From the sequence record PZ445435.1: a DNA stretch of 64,000 bases; one strand, 5' to 3'. The first letter of the stretch is position 1; every line of letters starts with the position of its first letter. The stretch comes from a phage. Shown here piece by piece: positions 51,856 through 61,179 of this stretch. The notes beneath the pieces are model-generated. The model did not search any database. It was not told the DNA's origin and saw only the letters and a program-made list of their open reading frames with translations. A program made the position numbers and the translations under genes.

Positions 51856-52341
51856 TCAAGTATTGTAAAACATTTGATTCAATCGCTTATATTGCCGAAT
51901 CTTTTGGTCAGAAAAAGAAATTTGGGTTTCAAGCCATTCAATATATTCTGCCGCAGCTTGCATCAAATTTCCTTCATAGCCATCGTTATTTTCTTGTGCA
52001 GCTAATTTAGCTAATGCGTATGAAATACGTTCACCTTGAAAATCGGCTTTAGGCTTCTGAACAACTTGATTAGTTCGCTCTACAACTTCTTCAATTTCGT
52101 CATTTTCAACGGATTCAGTATTCCACAAGCACCAATACGTAATTGGCTTATCGTAGATGTTAATAATTTTTCCATCAGAAAGTTCAATTTCAATAATTCC
52201 AGTATCAGATTCTATATCATCTTCACATTCTTTTGCAAGTTCACGAACTTTAAAGACAGTACCTGCACTAAGTTCCGGCCAGTAATTACATAGCCCTGTA
52301 TCAGCACGATTAATTCTAAACCACTTATCTACTGTAATCAT
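51856..52341 (-). CDS. pin: Pin-position protein (Lon protease inhibitor assigned by position)
   Basis: Start taken at MITVDKWF (161 aa). Confidence 0.55.
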   Translation of the reverse strand: MITVDKWFRINRADTGLCNYWPELSAGTVFKVRELAKECEDDIESDTGIIEIELSDGKIINIYDKPITYWCLWNTESVENDEIEEVVERTNQVVQKPKADFQGERISYALAKLAAQENNDGYEGNLMQAAAEYIEWLETQISFSDQKIRQYKRLNQMFYNT

Positions 52342-52463
52342 GTCCCATCTCCATATCAATTAAGTCATTTATCGTTGGTTCATTATACACCGTTTCTTCA
52401 TCAGTGTAAACCGGTTCTTCCGGCTCTGGCTCTACAGTTTCCCATCTAGCCGCCCACCAAGGT

Positions 52464-52673
52464 TTAACCCCGAAGCTTATTAAGTTCTTCATAATCAATC
52501 CAGGATTCTAATCCTGATGGCAAATCAGATTCAATTTCCCAAAGAAGTTCTTCAATTTTCTGAAGACGATCTAGTTCTTCGGCTGGAATAGTAACCATTG
52601 ACGGAGCTCGTGATACACTAATATCGTAAATCATATTTACCCCAGTTTGACCATGCAATCGCCGTATTTCCAC
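52464..52673 (-). CDS. hypothetical protein
   Basis: 69-aa ORF. Confidence 0.45.
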   Translation of the reverse strand: MEIRRLHGQTGVNMIYDISVSRAPSMVTIPAEELDRLQKIEELLWEIESDLPSGLESWIDYEELNKLRG

Positions 52674-52852
52674 TTAGAAATAGACTTTTCACCGTTAGAA
52701 TAATAAACTTCGAGTTTAGCACGATTATTTTTAATTTGAATAACCTTGGCTGTCATCAAAGTTCCATACCCATAGTAAACTGCAACTTCATCACCTACAT
52801 ATACCGCGCTTCCGCGGTAATCGTGAATATAGTCAGTTCCTTCGAGCATCAT
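52637..52852 (-). CDS. hypothetical protein
   Basis: 71-aa ORF. Confidence 0.45.
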   Translation of the reverse strand: MMLEGTDYIHDYRGSAVYVGDEVAVYYGYGTLMTAKVIQIKNNRAKLEVYYSNGEKSISKWKYGDCMVKLG

Positions 52853-53113: not shown

Positions 53114-53356
53114 TTATTCCTTAATTCCTAGTACTTGTTTAAAAGTCTCGTCGTAATCAAGACTTTGGCCCGTTTGTTCTTTATGTTTGTATATAATATC
53201 ACTTACTTCTGATAGCATATTTTTATATGAACGAGTTAAAGCAGATTTAAGCACGCTGTATCTATCAGGAAATTTACCATGTTCATTATAATAAGCTATT
53301 GCTAATTCACGGACTGCCTTTTCAGCAGCCTCCATATATTCTTTACGCTTGGTCAT
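53114..53356 (-). CDS. hypothetical protein
   Basis: Start refined to [13 protein letters not shown] (80 aa). Confidence 0.45.
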
Positions 53357-53660
53357 TTTCTTCTCGGTCAAATCGGTGTTTACAATGGCGGCATTTATAA
53401 CGAAGATTACTAGTCTGCCAATGGACCAATTGCACCTGTTCAGTTCCACATTCAGGGCAATTAGGAACGTTTTTAGAAGCCCTTTCGCGACGTTTAACCA
53501 TAGCCATAATGGCATCCCATGCTGGAGGTTTAAAATCTAAATCGTCACAACCATGAATCTTTCCACGCATTTCCATATCATCTTCCTCACCAGCCATAAT
53601 AATTTTAATTAAACTGGAATTACTTGAAGCTGCAATGTCTTCTAATAGACGCTTTTTCAT
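53343..53660 (-). CDS. zinc-ribbon protein
   Basis: 105 aa, CPECG...CRHCKH. Confidence 0.5.
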
Positions 53661-54586
53661 TTCAATACCTCAATAGCATTACGTAAACCATTTGCTTTTG
53701 CATTAAGAGCTTTTAACAATTTGGTGTGTTCTGCAATTTGGGCTTCAACTTCAATCAAACGAGCATTGAGATATTCGCGTTCTTCACTCAGATTATCAAC
53801 CTTTTCTACTTTAGGCTCTTTTACAACTGTCTTATATGTATTAGGGTTCTTCAGTTTAATTAGAATGCGTGAACTGTATAACATTGAACCATTATCTTCG
53901 GTTTCGTCATACATTTCTACTACATCCATAATTTTTAACATCATGCGGAGTTTATAAGACAACGAACGAATAGTTTTGTTGTGCTTATTAATTTCTTTAG
54001 CTGTCATGGTGCCGAGATTACGTGAGTAATAATAAGGAACCTGGATATTAATTAATACTGATGAACCACCTGGCTTGTGTGTTACTTCATCAGCAATAAC
54101 CCAATCCTTAACATGAACTGTATTTGTACGGTCATCGCCCGCGGTAAATAGTTTGCGAGCATGCTTAAAAAGCATATTCACTTGGTCATTGAATTGACAA
54201 GCAAATTTATCAGCAAATTTAGTTTCAGGAATGGTAGATAACCAATCAGCCAAATGAGTCTTTTTAACATCGTTAACAATAGTAAATTCAACCAAATCGG
54301 TTATAGATGTCTCAGATTTAATAAAGCTCGGCTTCATAAAGTTTTTAATGTTATCGCGAGCTACAGTAGAAGATAACATACGAGAACGTTTAAACCATTC
54401 AAGCAAATTGCCTAACGAATGAGAATAAGCGTTTTGAGTATCTTTACAGATATGATTTTCCTGGCCAACATATTGAAGGAAATCACGAAGAATATTATTG
54501 ATTACTGCTCTGTGTCCTATCTGATAATTACGATGTTTAGTAATAAGACTGTCAAAATAATCAATATAATGTTTACGAGTTTTCAT
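53657..54586 (-). CDS. paralog family member A (coiled-coil C-terminus)
   Basis: 309 aa; N-terminus MKTRKHYIDYFDSLI, mid-block KIMDVVEMYD, C-terminal heptad-rich tail. Confidence 0.6.
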   Translation of the reverse strand: MKTRKHYIDYFDSLITKHRNYQIGHRAVINNILRDFLQYVGQENHICKDTQNAYSHSLGNLLEWFKRSRMLSSTVARDNIKNFMKPSFIKSETSITDLVEFTIVNDVKKTHLADWLSTIPETKFADKFACQFNDQVNMLFKHARKLFTAGDDRTNTVHVKDWVIADEVTHKPGGSSVLINIQVPYYYSRNLGTMTAKEINKHNKTIRSLSYKLRMMLKIMDVVEMYDETEDNGSMLYSSRILIKLKNPNTYKTVVKEPKVEKVDNLSEEREYLNARLIEVEAQIAEHTKLLKALNAKANGLRNAIEVLK

Positions 54587-54638
54587 GTTCTTCTCACTTG
54601 GTTAATGATTTATGCTCCGAGCCATCCTTGGCTTTAAA

Positions 54639-55640
54639 TTACTTAATTAACTGTAAAGCTTGTTCAAGACGATCCAAGCGATTGACAGATTCTTCCCAAA
54701 TCTTTTTAGCCTGCTCATATTCTTTCTGCGCTTTATTAGAAATTTCTAGAACTTCTTTATAAGCTTTTTCTAATGCAATAACTTCTGGACGAATTTCTGC
54801 CGGTTCAGGCGAATCATCAAGATTATCCATTAGTTCCTCAAGGGTAGTTTCTTCTTTAGAAGTATTCACAATTTCCTCACATTTTTGTTGATAAATTTCT
54901 TTATCAGTAGGTGAATAAGCACATTTCACTTCACGAAGACTAATTACAATTTTATATCCTTCCCATCCGCATATATTCTTAAAAGGATATGTATGAATAT
55001 TTTCTACTGTTTCCATACAAAGTAATGCAGTCTCTAACTGACGAGTTATAGTGCTAGCAATTGAGAAAAATTTATTAATATTCTTTTGGTTAGCGTTTGG
55101 TGTAAAAAATCCATAATTCACAAAAATAGCTACTTTATTTTCATCAAGCTCATATTCTTTTACGATAATCATATCAGAAGCCAAAGGATGAATTTGACGA
55201 TAATCGCCATAACATAATTTAGAAGCTGATTTTAGAATTTGTCCTTTGAAAAGTCTGAAATTACTAATCCAACGACGAGTAAAAATATTCTCAGGGTCTT
55301 CTTTATTATTAAGATGATAAGAATTAACATCACCGAACCAATTATATCCTACTACATCTTTGGTTCGTTTAATTTCTTTCCCAAAATTACCAAGAATATC
55401 CCGATTAACTAAATATGAAAGAAGACGAGACTCTTTAAAGGTTTTCTTGATAACATCTTTATCTACACGGCTAGAAATTTTACGAATTTCATGAATAAAT
55501 TTAGTAGAAGAAACAATACTTGCATCAACACTATTGAGCCATTGATTGATAATAGAAAGAACGATATTTTGACCAAACATCGGTATAGCTTTATCATCAA
55601 TAACGCTATTGAATGATTTGATATATTCGTTACGAGTCAT
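54639..55640 (-). CDS. paralog family member B
   Basis: Start refined to MTRNEYIKSFNSVI (about 333 aa), which aligns with the N-terminus of A; C-terminal coiled coil. Confidence 0.6.
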   Translation of the reverse strand: MTRNEYIKSFNSVIDDKAIPMFGQNIVLSIINQWLNSVDASIVSSTKFIHEIRKISSRVDKDVIKKTFKESRLLSYLVNRDILGNFGKEIKRTKDVVGYNWFGDVNSYHLNNKEDPENIFTRRWISNFRLFKGQILKSASKLCYGDYRQIHPLASDMIIVKEYELDENKVAIFVNYGFFTPNANQKNINKFFSIASTITRQLETALLCMETVENIHTYPFKNICGWEGYKIVISLREVKCAYSPTDKEIYQQKCEEIVNTSKEETTLEELMDNLDDSPEPAEIRPEVIALEKAYKEVLEISNKAQKEYEQAKKIWEESVNRLDRLEQALQLIK

Positions 55641-55668
55641 ATTAATCTCCTCATTAGAAAGTAAGAAC

Positions 55669-55698
55669 ATTATACCACATCCTTGTGGCGAAGTAAAC
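55669..55698 (-). promoter_or_regulatory. early promoter inside the paralog array
   Basis: Minus strand GTTTAC-CCACAAGGATGTGG-TATAAT. Confidence 0.5.
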
Positions 55699-56723
55699 TA
55701 GTTTAGTGCATTTAGTGCATTGTTCAGTTTAGAACGTTGCTTTGTCAGATTTTGAACCCTTGACTGAGCTTGTTCTAACACCTTTTCAGCTTCTAGCACT
55801 TCATTGGTCGCTTTAACGAGTTCATCATCTACTGCCTTAAGAGACTTCTCAATCGCGTCAGCGTGCCATTTTTCTACAGGTTTAAGACTCGGATTTTCAA
55901 CAGGAAGAAAATTCACTTTATTGAATTTCCATGCATCATTATTACCTGAACTATACATCCAAAATTTAGAATCGTTTGATGAGTAATTGGATAAATTTAA
56001 ATTTAAGTTATCTTGCACTTCTTGCTTTTTCTCTTGCGGGACTTCGTCCTTTCTCAAAAAATCGTATTTAAATGAAACGATCATATCAAGTTCATATGTT
56101 GTCGTATCTAACTTAAATCGTTCAAAACGAGGTAAAATCTTAGATTGAACAGCAGCAACAACATCCATATACTTAAATGCTTCTGTCAACTGCGATTTAA
56201 GGCATTCACAAATTGAAAGAGAATTTTTTGTATTAGGTTTAAAGCTAATTCGTGCAGTTCTATTATTTTCTTTTAACGGTCTTACTTCCATCTGAAGAGT
56301 ATAACCATCAAATTTCAGATTCTTTAAGTTAATATCAGAGCCTTTTAATCGACTAGCAGTAGACAAAATTTGCTTTAATTGTTTACGAAATAGAGCAATA
56401 AATCTCCATTCAATACGATAATGATTTGGATTAAAAAATCCTGTTGATAAATCAACCTTACTCTGACCAACGCCTTGAACAAATAGAGGATTTTTATAAT
56501 CAATAGTTTTACAGAAATCGGTGAGCTGCTCACGAGCAGTCATTTGTGTAATATATCCCGCTTTACTAAAATGACATAACCATTCACTGCTATTCATATA
56601 CTTAAAGTGAATATCACGATTAACTTTATCAGGGTCTAAATTATTTTGGCACAAAAATGTCATAACATTACGGGTATAGCTGGCATTACGAACCATATCT
56701 TCAATTTGAGAACGAGTTTTCAT
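55698..56723 (-). CDS. paralog family member C
   Basis: 341 aa; N-terminus MKTRSQIEDMV, mid-block KYMDVVAAV, C-terminal coiled coil. Confidence 0.6.
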   Translation of the reverse strand: MKTRSQIEDMVRNASYTRNVMTFLCQNNLDPDKVNRDIHFKYMNSSEWLCHFSKAGYITQMTAREQLTDFCKTIDYKNPLFVQGVGQSKVDLSTGFFNPNHYRIEWRFIALFRKQLKQILSTASRLKGSDINLKNLKFDGYTLQMEVRPLKENNRTARISFKPNTKNSLSICECLKSQLTEAFKYMDVVAAVQSKILPRFERFKLDTTTYELDMIVSFKYDFLRKDEVPQEKKQEVQDNLNLNLSNYSSNDSKFWMYSSGNNDAWKFNKVNFLPVENPSLKPVEKWHADAIEKSLKAVDDELVKATNEVLEAEKVLEQAQSRVQNLTKQRSKLNNALNALN

Positions 56724-56731
56724 AGTGTTCC

Positions 56732-57640
56732 TTAAGATTTAAGTAAATCAACAATTTTAATTAATTTTTCACGCTCAGATTTAGCTTTACTACTCAATCC
56801 AGATAGTCTGAAAATTTCATCGTCATACTGTTGAATAGAAATATTCAGCTCTTCAATTTGCTTATTAAAATAATCAATTTGCTCAGAATGTTTTTCATTA
56901 CTGCGAACTGGTACAGGTTTTGTAGGCAATTTAGTTAAACTGGATTCATCCGGGCGATAAATTAAAATGCAATTTGAACCAATCGGGCATTTAGCACCAG
57001 ACACATATTCTAATGTTCCGGCTTCTTTTAAAACTTCAAAAGCTAAACAGAGATGATGCCCCATATTAACATAATCTGTAGAGTGAGCTCTGATGTAATA
57101 ATCATCTCCACGAATACTAAATTTAAAGCATTTAAGGTCTTCTGTATTATTGGTCTTAAAAATCATTTGTTTATCTAGACCTTTAGCTAATCGAGCGCCT
57201 AATGCTAATAATCGGCGTTGATTTTCCCACAAATCCGCAATCATTTGATCGAATGATAATTTCGGCATTAGTCGACCATAAAGGTCATATCCTTTATTAT
57301 AATTGCGAAGGATTTCACTCGCATTAATACGAGACAACGCTCCAATTTTATTAAGGGCTTTCATGATGCGATTAGATAAACCCATTCCAGACCCGTTTGT
57401 TCGTTGTAAATGTTTATCTAATCCAAACCCAATATCAACTTTAAATTTATCTAAAATTTCAGCATGAACATCTCTGTCAATAACATTCAAATCCAAAGTT
57501 GGGTTAAATCTATGAAAAAATTTATCTGGCTCTCCACGACGAAGTACAGTCCATTCATTCAATTTTTTATTAACTAAAGATTTAATTACTGCATTGACAT
57601 TATTAATTACTACTGACATATTTTCCTCACTCAATTTCAA
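56732..57640 (-). CDS. paralog family member D (divergent)
   Basis: 302 aa; C-terminal coiled coil IEELNISIQQYDDEIFRL. Confidence 0.55.
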   Translation of the reverse strand: MKLSEENMSVVINNVNAVIKSLVNKKLNEWTVLRRGEPDKFFHRFNPTLDLNVIDRDVHAEILDKFKVDIGFGLDKHLQRTNGSGMGLSNRIMKALNKIGALSRINASEILRNYNKGYDLYGRLMPKLSFDQMIADLWENQRRLLALGARLAKGLDKQMIFKTNNTEDLKCFKFSIRGDDYYIRAHSTDYVNMGHHLCLAFEVLKEAGTLEYVSGAKCPIGSNCILIYRPDESSLTKLPTKPVPVRSNEKHSEQIDYFNKQIEELNISIQQYDDEIFRLSGLSSKAKSEREKLIKIVDLLKS

Positions 57641-58034
57641 TTTTACTAAATATACAGAATAAGATGGAACAGACTATATAAGCACCACACACAGATTGAA
57701 CTAATACCATTCCAAAGAACCAAACAATATTATCAAACAATGTCTGTTTTACGTCGAAAGGACGTAAACTTACAGTAATATTATCACCTTTTTCTATTGA
57801 AGAATACATCTCTGGGGAAATATATTCACTAAATCTATAACCGTCTTTGAGTTCATATACAGCAATAAACGATAAACTAGACCCCTTTCCTTGAGTTCCT
57901 GTAAGGGTATTAACTACAGTAACATCATAATCTTTATAATGCATATAATCATTAATAGCATAATAACCATATGCAATTACTATACATAAACAACATATCA
58001 ATAAATTCAATCTTTTAATTATCAACTGTTTCAT
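57627..58034 (-). CDS. two-pass membrane protein
   Basis: 135 aa; N-terminal and C-terminal hydrophobic helices around a hydrophilic domain. Confidence 0.55.
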   Translation of the reverse strand: MKQLIIKRLNLLICCLCIVIAYGYYAINDYMHYKDYDVTVVNTLTGTQGKGSSLSFIAVYELKDGYRFSEYISPEMYSSIEKGDNITVSLRPFDVKQTLFDNIVWFFGMVLVQSVCGAYIVCSILFCIFSKIEIE

Positions 58035-58063: not shown

Positions 58064-58090
58064 ATTATACCATCCTTGGTATAAAGCGGT
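58064..58090 (-). promoter_or_regulatory. middle-type promoter (MotA-box-like) heading the membrane protein and paralog operon
   Basis: Minus strand GCTTTATA-10nt-TATAAT. Confidence 0.4.
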
Positions 58091-59081: not shown

Positions 59082-60050
59082 TTATTTCAGAAGAGTAACC
59101 TCAGCGATTTCTTCCCAACCGTTTTTGTCGGTCATAATAAAGTCAGCAAGATAAAGAGCAGTACGCAGTGAAACATTGCGTAAACGATTAACATTGACTT
59201 TCATCCATGATAATGCTTTATAAGTTTCTTCATCAGAAAGACCGCGCTTTTGCATCATGTCAGTTGAAAGAATAACATCTTCAACCCTGACCATAATTTC
59301 TTCATTAGTGTGAACACCCAAATCCAAATAAACTGAGCGGGAAACTAATGCTTGTAAATGTGGAGCAAGTTTAGTACCACGATCTAATTCGCGGTCAATA
59401 TCAACGTTTGTGATAAAAACAATCGTTCCTTTAAATTCAAACTCACGCTCAATGCCTTTTTCTTCTAAGTAAGAAGATGCAGTGCTCCAGCAGACTTTAC
59501 GGGTCTCTCCAGTGTCCAGAGCAGCTTTTAGAAGATTAAGAATGTCCATATCAGAGAAAACATCCACATCATCAATCAAAAGGACAGAATTCTCTTCACG
59601 ATTATTCCAAAGCTGTTCATAAAGACCGATACCGGAGATTTTACCGTTAATGCTTTTATATTCAATGTATCCAATATCATTTGCTTTATTTAAAGCTTTA
59701 TCTAAAGAATACGTTTTACCAATACCTGCCGCACCAGAGATAATTAATGAACGAATGTTTCCGTTAATAATACCATTCGTCATCATTCCCATAACATTAA
59801 ATCTTTTATTAATGCGGGTTTTCATATCTTCATACGATTCTTTAACTTCTTCAACTTTTACACCATCATATGAAATGTCTGATTTGTAAACCCAAACACC
59901 GCGACGTTTACCGTCAATTTCAACAAAAACTTTACCATCTCCTTGTGCATCTACCGGAGCATTATCTGGGAACCATTCGCCTAAGAGCTCAAAAGTTCCA
60001 GAGATTTCTTTACCGAAGTAGATACCCTTATTGATAGTTACAGTTTTCAT
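59082..60050 (-). CDS. P-loop NTPase of unknown function
   Basis: Start refined to MKTVTINKGIYFG (322 aa); Walker A GAAGIGKT, Walker B VLLIDDVD. Confidence 0.6.
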   Translation of the reverse strand: MKTVTINKGIYFGKEISGTFELLGEWFPDNAPVDAQGDGKVFVEIDGKRRGVWVYKSDISYDGVKVEEVKESYEDMKTRINKRFNVMGMMTNGIINGNIRSLIISGAAGIGKTYSLDKALNKANDIGYIEYKSINGKISGIGLYEQLWNNREENSVLLIDDVDVFSDMDILNLLKAALDTGETRKVCWSTASSYLEEKGIEREFEFKGTIVFITNVDIDRELDRGTKLAPHLQALVSRSVYLDLGVHTNEEIMVRVEDVILSTDMMQKRGLSDEETYKALSWMKVNVNRLRNVSLRTALYLADFIMTDKNGWEEIAEVTLLK

Positions 60051-60083
60051 TTTATTCTCCAAATCCGTATCAGTTGATAGTTG

Positions 60084-60114
60084 TATAGTACCATAAAGCT
60101 TTATGCTTGTAAAC
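60084..60114 (-). promoter_or_regulatory. early promoter for the P-loop NTPase gene
   Basis: Repeated element; GTTTACA...TACTATA. Confidence 0.55.
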
Positions 60115-60145
60115 AACTTTGTGAAAAATTTTTGAAATAAAAAAA

Positions 60146-60163
60146 GGGAGCCCGAAGGCTCCC
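60146..60163 (-). terminator. UUCG-loop hairpin after the nucleotidyltransferase gene
   Basis: gggagcc-cgaa-ggctccc. Confidence 0.5.
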
Positions 60164-60165
60164 TA

Positions 60166-61179
60166 TCATTTATAATAACTTCGGTGGTTTTCAAGATAAA
60201 CCTGTTCGAGGAAATTATTCCAAAAGCTCATATCTACTGTTTTAGGCATACCATTCTTAGAAGCTTCAGTAGATGCTGCTTCTACTTGATCGACCACATC
60301 TTCCAAAAACTCTTGAACCGTTTTAAATGGATGTTTACCCAACTTCACGTCGAGAATAAATGGAGCGTCTTGAAGTGGATAAACCAAGTCACCAGTTTTG
60401 TAAATTTCCAATAGTTGAAGTCCACCACGACAAGCATGGCTCAGAGCTTTCCAGTCAATGCCTTCATTGGCTTCGGCCTTTCGAGCGCGTTCACCATATT
60501 CAGCATCTAATTTGTTCAGTGACTGCTTAAGCTCAATAAGAGAAAGCGTTGTCTGATATTTACGACCCAACACTGTGTAAAACGTCTGTGGGCCTGTTTT
60601 CTCATGATTATGGAACACCCATTCACAGAATTCGTTTTCTGGAAGACGATGCTTAATATCTTCAACTTTAGTACGACGCTGCTTAATGGAACCGTCTTCT
60701 TGGTAATCAACCCATTGCTCAGGGATTTGATTAACTACTTTCAATACATCACGTAATGCAGCCAAACGAGAACCCTTGACACCGTATTTAGAAGCTTGCT
60801 TGCGGACATATCCTAAATAGGATTTCATGTTAGTCGTATAAAAACGAGAACGGTTGTCTTGAATAAACTTCCACACATCAGGCAAATCTGATTTAACTAC
60901 TAGCTCAGGTGGAGTGTGAAGCATATCCAATGCTACGGTTTCACCATCTGCTGCTAATTTAAAGAAATATTTAAGACTGTATAGTTCATGGTCAATATCA
61001 TCTTTAGTGTTTTTAGATGATGTATTGTTAGTATTTTTACTCATGTGCTCTTTGACATTTCCGATAAGAATATCGCGAGCAGGAGGAACAAAAATTTCTT
61101 TAAAATCTACATCAGATTCTGGGGTAGAAGTTCCATAAAGATGACTACCAAAATAGCTTTTCATTACTGTTTTCATCAT
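60166..61179 (-). CDS. nucleotidyltransferase-fold protein (Pol-beta superfamily)
   Basis: 337 aa; N-terminal motif YFGSHLYGTSTPESDVDF (GS...SDxD) and downstream VALDMLH. Confidence 0.6.
   Translation of the reverse strand: MMKTVMKSYFGSHLYGTSTPESDVDFKEIFVPPARDILIGNVKEHMSKNTNNTSSKNTKDDIDHELYSLKYFFKLAADGETVALDMLHTPPELVVKSDLPDVWKFIQDNRSRFYTTNMKSYLGYVRKQASKYGVKGSRLAALRDVLKVVNQIPEQWVDYQEDGSIKQRRTKVEDIKHRLPENEFCEWVFHNHEKTGPQTFYTVLGRKYQTTLSLIELKQSLNKLDAEYGERARKAEANEGIDWKALSHACRGGLQLLEIYKTGDLVYPLQDAPFILDVKLGKHPFKTVQEFLEDVVDQVEAASTEASKNGMPKTVDMSFWNNFLEQVYLENHRSYYK

Follow-up and report, generated by a model that had tools for sequence, protein, structure and literature searches.

Are the four consecutive minus-strand genes between positions 53657 and 57619 of a phage DNA stretch (the window: 64,000 nucleotides (nt) of record PZ445435.1) kin to one another, and do they serve the phage against the defences of its host? 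T4 is the best-studied phage, yet a function is known for only about half of its genes. The window belongs to a Tequatrovirus (T4-like) genome: the array region shares 92-98% nt identity with hundreds of Tequatrovirus genomes, and 98% with those whose annotation includes nrdC.3 to nrdC.7; in annotated relatives nrdC.6 is followed on its 5' side by nrdC.7 and then nrdC.8. This bears out the T-even setting proposed in an earlier note that had been made from the letters alone. Judged by sequence, the four genes are the orthologs of T4 nrdC.3, nrdC.4, nrdC.5 and nrdC.6, non-essential accessory genes long annotated as T4 open reading frames (ORFs), one of which, nrdC.5, is already a published counter-defence gene. 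We find that the four are divergent paralogs of a single superfamily, the evidence being weakest, and still good, for nrdC.6. The best explanation of their role, to which we would give a probability of about 0.6, is that they encode coiled-coil-oligomerised inhibitors of host immune sensors; nrdC.5 has been shown to counteract the defence protein Dsr1, and for the other three we infer a comparable activity. The genes and their C-terminal tails are the following (aa, amino acids; E, expectation value; pLDDT, predicted local distance difference test).

53657..54586, minus strand: nrdC.3 homolog, 309 aa; ORF, phrog_1435 at E=1e-116, closest paralog nrdC.4
53660..53812, minus strand: putative coiled-coil tail of nrdC.3, residues about 259-309, end NAIEVLK; heptad score and alignment with the other three tails
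54639..55640, minus strand: nrdC.4 homolog, 333 aa; ORF, phrog_1435 at E=6e-169, PF26897 in homologs
54642..54782, minus strand: putative coiled-coil tail of nrdC.4, about residues 287-333, end QALQLIK; heptad score and alignments
55698..56723, minus strand: nrdC.5 homolog, 341 aa, DUF7235; PF23882, phrog_2351, AlphaFold pLDDT 73.8
55701..55871, minus strand: predicted C-terminal long helix of nrdC.5, residues 285-340, protein end NALNALN; AlphaFold, heptad score over 283-341
56732..57619, minus strand: nrdC.6 homolog, 295 aa, most divergent paralog; phrog_2257, PF26899 in homologs, AlphaFold pLDDT 78.6
56735..56896, minus strand: predicted C-terminal helices of nrdC.6, residues 242-294, end IVDLLKS; AlphaFold helices, heptad score

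Three of the ORF sizes in the earlier note (309, 333 and 341 aa, on the minus strand) stand. The fourth, 302 aa for nrdC.6, would need a TTG start at 57640, whereas annotated relatives start at the ATG at 57619 and make 295 aa. For nrdC.4, the ATG at 55640 has GGAG just upstream and gives 333 aa; an alternative ATG at 55670 (343 aa) falls within the -10 box of a promoter-like site, and the 333-aa product is therefore the likelier one.

Databases present the four genes as three unrelated families without an assigned function, in Pfam and PHROGs alike: nrdC.3 with nrdC.4 (1435), nrdC.5 (2351) and nrdC.6 (2257). Every gene matches the profile of its own family over the full length. The nrdC.5 product matches PF23882 over residues 1-341 at 400.6 bits (cutoff 30); nrdC.3 and nrdC.4 fall together in one full-length family, phrog_1435/PF26897, the Pfam entry being reached through close nrdC.4 homologs; and nrdC.6 matches phrog_2257 over residues 1-295, its full length, at E=1.4e-152. 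No match of nrdC.3, nrdC.4 or nrdC.6 to PF23882 was found at E up to 1, which places them outside that Pfam family. In contrast to this partition, profile, intermediate-sequence and structural evidence unites the three.

By BLASTP, nrdC.3 and nrdC.4 are 25% identical over 226 aa (E=1e-7). All other pairs have E>0.2, their weak matches lying mostly in the tails, and for nrdC.4 against nrdC.5 there is no signal outside the tail. With family alignments enriched with sequences from related loci, hhalign linked nrdC.3 with nrdC.4 (97.9%, E=4e-13); between nrdC.4 and nrdC.5 the link was 93.7% (E=2e-7) and colinear over 249 columns. Hidden Markov models (HMMs) from which the tails had been removed also scored across families, with 19.9 bits against at most 8.5, and 16.4 bits against at most 10.3, for shuffled and reversed controls.

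The position of nrdC.6 took richer profiles to establish. Using families only, its hhalign match to the merged nrdC.3/4/5 profile reaches E=3e-4 (score 36, against at most 23 for column shuffles) and, without the tails, E=0.007. When the nrdC.6 profile is extended with three significant nrdC.6-like relatives, the match to nrdC.3/4/5 rises to 97.3% (E=1.7e-11, score 87); it falls in the globular part, outside the tail, and the controls score 13.5 (reversed profile) and at most 16 (column shuffles). Several proteins bridge the families. Two clear nrdC.6-type intermediates, P0239 and P0240 (2e-14 and 2.5e-15), also match the nrdC.5 HMM (about 1e-8). A Klebsiella Marfavirus protein, P0233, matches the nrdC.4 and nrdC.5 HMMs almost equally (5e-12 and 4e-11), as does the single-copy relative in Marfa when the family HMMs are built separately (2e-12 and 3e-11), and the single-copy protein of Enterobacter phage IME523 matches those of nrdC.6, nrdC.5 and nrdC.4 at 1e-9, 9e-8 and 8e-5.

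These results bear on a sceptical explanation, in which coiled-coil composition and chance similarities in short motifs only simulate the kinship of nrdC.6, and perhaps of nrdC.5, so that two or three unrelated families would merely stand side by side. It draws on the restriction of significant BLASTP similarity to nrdC.3 and nrdC.4, on the separation of the three families in Pfam and PHROGs, and on the tail-less, family-only E value of just 0.007 for nrdC.6. Yet the tail-less HMMs score above every shuffle, the extended nrdC.6 match is globular and far above its controls (87 against 13-16), the intermediates match several family HMMs independently, and two independently computed structural models, described below, have the same order of secondary-structure elements and match the same protein in BFVD. 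An artefact is thus largely refuted already, and we hold it to be highly improbable. Significant colinear profile-profile similarity outside the coiled-coil tail is what defines the superfamily here. The earlier note's divergent paralogs are accordingly borne out by the formal pairwise and profile alignments it had called for: by BLASTP for nrdC.3 and nrdC.4, by hhalign for nrdC.5, and by hhalign with metagenomic intermediates, and only so, for nrdC.6. A further candidate, nrdC.8, has a similar-looking tail and was considered as a truncated fifth member; it was excluded because hhalign gave E>=0.1.

The sequence motifs of the earlier note, the central hydrophobic motif among them, keep their register in both the MAFFT and the hhalign alignments. 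The N-terminal block M(K)TRxEYI, which had been attributed to all four proteins, is common to nrdC.3 (54542-54586), nrdC.4 (55596-55640) and nrdC.5 (56691-56723) only; nrdC.6 has a different N-terminus. At the other end all four share (A/I)-h-x-x-L-K. AlphaFold models of nrdC.5 and nrdC.6, each computed from an alignment without the other's family, were compared as had been suggested. In both, the predicted elements follow the same order: helices at the N-terminus, then a pair of helices, a beta-beta-alpha-beta-beta unit, a linker of low confidence (residues 227-282 in nrdC.5, 226-241 in nrdC.6) and a long C-terminal helix, broken in nrdC.6 into 242-271 and 277-294. Compared as strings on a sequence-only MAFFT alignment, the secondary structures of these two models have the same state at 68% of positions, whereas circular shifts reach 41% on average and 53% at most. 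In BFVD one protein of Acinetobacter phage Acj61 is matched by both models (E=7.8e-6 and 1.1e-4), and the nrdC.6 model also matches uncharacterised proteins, about 300-346 aa long, from many further T4-like phages. The heptad a/d score peaks in the tails of the array proteins and, with the long amphipathic C-terminal helices of the two models (50-56 residues), upholds the heptad-rich tails that had been described. Each of the four proteins would then begin with a helical N-subdomain, which varies more than any other ordered part, and continue through a conserved helix pair and a beta-beta-alpha-beta-beta domain to a disordered linker; a 45-55 residue amphipathic helix, with the conserved A/I-h-x-x-L-K as its end, would close the chain.

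Known folds and domains gave little to add. Neither a solved structure nor an informative fold match was found for the family, and scans of Pfam, NCBIfam and PADLOC returned nothing informative beyond DUF7235. Sub-threshold matches to PHL, a SAM-like integrase domain, XerD, BrxC and PgrA were rejected as short or due to coiled-coil composition. The merged family profile matched de novo designed helical-repeat proteins in PDB at E=7e-11, an artefact: six weak repeat matches had been summed, and each repeat taken independently has E>=0.09. Helical N-domains of this kind call for caution in profile searches generally, as summed repeat matches make the E values look spuriously strong.

T4 is known to inject anti-defence proteins (IPI*), and this lends some appeal to the idea that the M(K)TRxEYI block targets the array proteins to the capsid, as MKTYQEFIAE does for T4 internal proteins; they would then enter the head and reach the host cell together with the DNA. 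The N-termini do faintly resemble the IPII/IPIII leader (T4 record) over a short distance. However, what they have in common is confined to M-(K)-T-x-x-E-Y/F-I, and the array proteins lack the combination of leader and (L/I)xE site that marks a T4 internal protein, the cleavage site being missing from most members. Moreover, the block is predicted to be a well-packed helix of the N-domain (pLDDT 89), nrdC.6 is entirely without it, and nrdC.5 has been described as an early gene (PMC9391042). The idea was dropped because the protease cleavage motif is missing, and its chances appear to us minute.

The functional anchor of the family is nrdC.5. A T4 clone without this gene failed to plate on ECOR17 or on MG1655 carrying ECOR17 dsr1, and plasmid-borne nrdC.5 alone restored plating of the T4 deletion clone on MG1655 with dsr1 (PMC9391042). 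The window gene at 55698-56723 is the ortholog of T4 NrdC.5 (DUF7235, PF23882), with 94% aa identity, a full-length match and the same genomic position. The other three, nrdC.3, nrdC.4 and nrdC.6, are remote paralogs of T4 NrdC.5 that would share its architecture; they do not match PF23882. A literature search for these three genes, the Pfam accessions and inhibitors of Dsr1 gave nothing beyond PMC9391042, and no mechanism for NrdC.5 was found in the literature searched. Dsr1 itself is a SIR2 NADase whose sensor domain, shared with Avs7, is triggered by the phage major capsid protein (PMC13581612). Close by, gp49.2 of T6 inhibits the OLD defence (PMC13096335), and with this anti-OLD gene next door the pin-nrdC region behaves as an anti-defence island. 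The link to host defence that the earlier note had suspected is therefore sound for nrdC.5 and for the neighbourhood, whereas the direct evidence covers only one of the four genes.

Since nrdC.3, nrdC.4 and nrdC.6 are paralogs of the anti-Dsr1 gene, they become new candidate phage anti-defence proteins, rather than a new kind of system. In the mechanism we envisage, the coiled-coil tail would bring about oligomerisation, while the globular head would bind and block a host immune sensor before the late phage proteins appear. The target of nrdC.5 would be the SIR2-type NADase Dsr1, whose C-terminal sensor responds to the major capsid protein of phages; its three sisters nrdC.3, nrdC.4 and nrdC.6 would inhibit other host targets, and the variable N-terminal subdomain could provide the specificity surface. 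Direct binding and oligomerisation through the tail are steps that we infer, and the anti-defence role of the three paralogs is suggested by homology, location and evolutionary behaviour. A functional analogy may be drawn with the phage protein DSAD1, which blocks the SIR2-NADase DSR2, itself activated by a phage structural protein (PMC10973363, PMC10981675, PMC11087589); the array proteins have no DSAD1-like sequence or fold similarity. The array also invites comparison with the T-even islands dmd-tifA-adfA (PMC9391042) and gp49.2 next to nrdC (PMC13096335), made up of small non-essential genes that vary among close relatives and each counter one defence. Those islands consist of unrelated genes, unlike the array, which is a family of paralogs of about 300 aa on a probable common scaffold; it lies about 1 kb from the gp49.x cassette.

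How the genes evolve was followed in seven Tequatrovirus genomes, by protein identity and by pairwise ratios of nonsynonymous to synonymous substitution rates (dN/dS). The flanking proteins nrdC, nrdC.1 and nrdC.8 to nrdC.10 are 97-100% identical; nrdC.4 is 89-97%, nrdC.5 90-95% and nrdC.6 94-99% identical. For nrdC.3, nrdC.4 and nrdC.5 dN/dS is 0.19-0.30, and for nrdC.6 it is 0.10; the flanking genes have values of 0.01-0.07, and the array proteins thus evolve faster than their flanks. Variation is concentrated in N-terminal residues 20-60 and, in nrdC.5, in a hypervariable disordered linker; the tails are among the best conserved parts. In nrdC.3 there are two allele classes, about 60% identical to each other between flanks that are 97-100% identical, and the phage collection holds 361 nrdC.3 records matching at >=90% and 241 at 60-80%. 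In comparison with loci L002-L004 and L016, the window carries the class opposite to that of T4. This allele has about 85% nt identity to the Mosigvirus gene, which suggests that nrdC.3 has been exchanged between genera.

It may be asked whether nrdC.5 is the sole anti-defence member, nrdC.3, nrdC.4 and nrdC.6 using the same scaffold for other early takeover tasks such as binding host transcription or DNA-associated proteins. Functional divergence is common among paralogs, nrdC.6 evolves more slowly than the others, and tyrosine recombinases, through their SAM-like N-domain, give weak sub-threshold matches to nrdC.3 (E=0.08 in Pfam, E=0.002 in NCBIfam). All such recombinase-domain matches, however, are below family thresholds and span 50-77 residues; the region has two proven anti-defence genes; and nrdC.3 and nrdC.4 are as fast-evolving and allele-rich as nrdC.5. 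We consider a restriction of the activity to nrdC.5 conceivable but rather doubtful.

Natural rearrangements speak to the independence of the genes. An out-of-frame internal deletion disrupts nrdC.6 in Pinarejo, and ACG-C40 has lost nrdC.5, nrdC.4 and nrdC.3, of which stubs are left. In Salmonella phage Manna (L020 4215-5252) nrdC.6 and nrdC.4 are fused in frame at a DEI/EEI microhomology, giving an nrdC.6::nrdC.4 chimera, and nrdC.5 is missing. In one IMG/VR genome (L006) nrdC.4 is frameshifted; the metagenomic protein P0120 is an nrdC.5::nrdC.3 hybrid; and the nrdC.6 of Sf25 (P0122) has an 83-residue internal tandem duplication. The junctions in Manna, Pinarejo and P0120 are short microhomologies. 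Losses and fusions of single members in natural phages fit accessory genes that act independently. The host-range or defence pressure that had been presumed for the locus is in keeping with the raised dN/dS, the allele dimorphism and these deletions and chimeras, though selection is purifying overall.

A merged-profile search of 1.84 billion representative proteins gave 28 matches. Every relative of traceable source is from a T4-like phage, and this database-wide HMM search found none from bacteria or from phages that are not T4-like. Marfavirus and Kanagawavirus have one copy, adjoining an nrdC.2-like gene. In Mosigvirus the order is nrdC.6-type, nrdC.5-type, nrdC.3-type; in Dhakavirus-like and related genomes it is nrdC.6-type, a 71-aa ORF, a divergent nrdC.5-type and nrdC.4-type; Tequatrovirus has all four genes. 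Because the trio of nrdC.6, nrdC.5 and nrdC.3 or nrdC.4 keeps its order across T-even genera, the triplication is old, and only the joint presence of nrdC.3 and nrdC.4 is a Tequatrovirus-specific novelty. The diversified tandem array of the earlier note is real, but it is not recent. Read from the sequences, the superfamily grew within T4-like phages, from one copy to three and then to four.

The same conserved order could be taken to mean that the conserved C-terminal helices hold the paralogs together as one hetero-oligomeric complex with a single function, instead of leaving each to act as an independent inhibitor. The trio holds in Tequatrovirus, Mosigvirus and Dhakavirus-like genomes, and the well-conserved tails with their common C-terminal end would suit such an assembly. 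On the other hand, nrdC.5 alone, on a plasmid, rescues the Dsr1 phenotype (PMC9391042), members are missing in Pinarejo (nrdC.6), ACG-C40 (nrdC.5, nrdC.4 and nrdC.3), L006 (nrdC.4) and Manna (nrdC.5), and in distant genera there is only one copy. The loss of single genes in nature and the rescue by nrdC.5 alone both count against an obligate hetero-complex, which we judge unlikely.

Independent inhibition of host sensors remains the reading we prefer, and several points weigh against it. An experimental phenotype exists for nrdC.5 only, one gene in four, and binding is supposed for all. The extent of the T4 evo-3 deletion that nrdC.5 complemented is not given in the text of PMC9391042. The attachment of nrdC.6 depends on intermediate sequences, since the family profiles by themselves give a weak match. 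Purifying selection prevails overall (dN/dS at most 0.30, in a sample of only seven genomes), and the strict order of nrdC.6, nrdC.5 and nrdC.3/nrdC.4 across T-even genera would also fit joint action.

One might go further and speculate that the NrdC.3-6 scaffold is a modular blocker of pattern-recognition sensors, each paralog or allele being tuned to a different receptor of capsid or structural proteins, for instance of the Dsr1/Avs7 type. This extension is a tentative one, and we would not bet on it. If it were true, T-even phages would carry a small panel of sensor-blocking paralogs tracking the receptor diversity of their hosts, and chimeras such as the nrdC.6::nrdC.4 gene of Manna would be raw material for new specificities.

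What the analysis adds to the annotated T4 ORFs and the published role of nrdC.5 is the union of three database families in one superfamily, its copy history of one, three and four, the allele dimorphism of nrdC.3, and a catalogue of chimeras and deletions. The outcome will not surprise a T4 specialist; it does provide directly testable candidates. Homology to a proven anti-Dsr1 gene makes nrdC.3, nrdC.4 and nrdC.6 concrete choices for cloning in anti-defence screens, the probable common structural scaffold can guide work on how NrdC.5 blocks a sirtuin defence, and the two nrdC.3 alleles and natural deletion variants are ready material for host-range comparison.

Around the array lie several further features.

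57627..58034, minus strand: nrdC.7 homolog, 135 aa, two hydrophobic segments; phrog_2547
55669..55697, minus strand: T4-early / sigma-70-type promoter-like site, GTTTAC-17 nt-TGgTATAAT; consensus match only
58064..58088, minus strand: MotA-box-like GCTTTA-12 nt-TATAAT, 5' of nrdC.7; sequence reading, consensus match only

The earlier note had placed a membrane protein gene at the head of the array, with a middle-type promoter of its own, and an early promoter within the array. The nrdC.7 gene and its two hydrophobic segments are where they were said to be, but the position is not conserved: nrdC.7 is absent between nrdC.8 and nrdC.6 in the Dhakavirus-like loci L007-L015 and adjoins nrdC in Mosigvirus SQ17. 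It neighbours the unit without being conserved as a part of it. The promoter-like site between nrdC.5 and nrdC.4, scored in the scan as TTTACT-17 nt-TATAAT, has 10/12 consensus matches and an extended -10 (TG), and would correspond, as a match to consensus, to the internal early promoter. The site 5' of nrdC.7 may be a middle or an extended -10 promoter; its MotA-like box has one mismatch to the TGCTT core, and was left off the list of exact matches for that reason.

The interval between pin and nrdC looks like a variable anti-defence cassette. In the window (52325-52852) it keeps gp49.1, and T4 gp49.2 and gp49.3 are absent; in their place are ORFs of 69 aa (52464-52673) and 71 aa (52637-52852). 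Next to the array, nrdC.2 (53343-53660) encodes a small protein whose C-terminal part has a CxxC...CxxC zinc ribbon and is matched weakly by DUF7129 and zinc-ribbon families. Tequatroviruses differ in it as much as in the array (identity 63-88%, dN/dS 0.23), and it is the sole neighbour kept beside the family even in single-copy genera. An ORF of 67-71 aa between the nrdC.6-type and nrdC.5-type genes, overlapping the start of the latter, is conserved in the non-Tequatrovirus T-even loci L007-L015 (about 7670-8045 in locus coordinates) and absent from Tequatrovirus. Farther upstream, nrdC.10 (59082-60194) may be an ATPase, as it has a Walker-A-like GAAGIGKT motif. Just upstream of it, at 60145-60164, a strong GC-rich hairpin and the T-run after it resemble a terminator on the minus strand; a TTTACA-17-TACTAT promoter-like site comes next.

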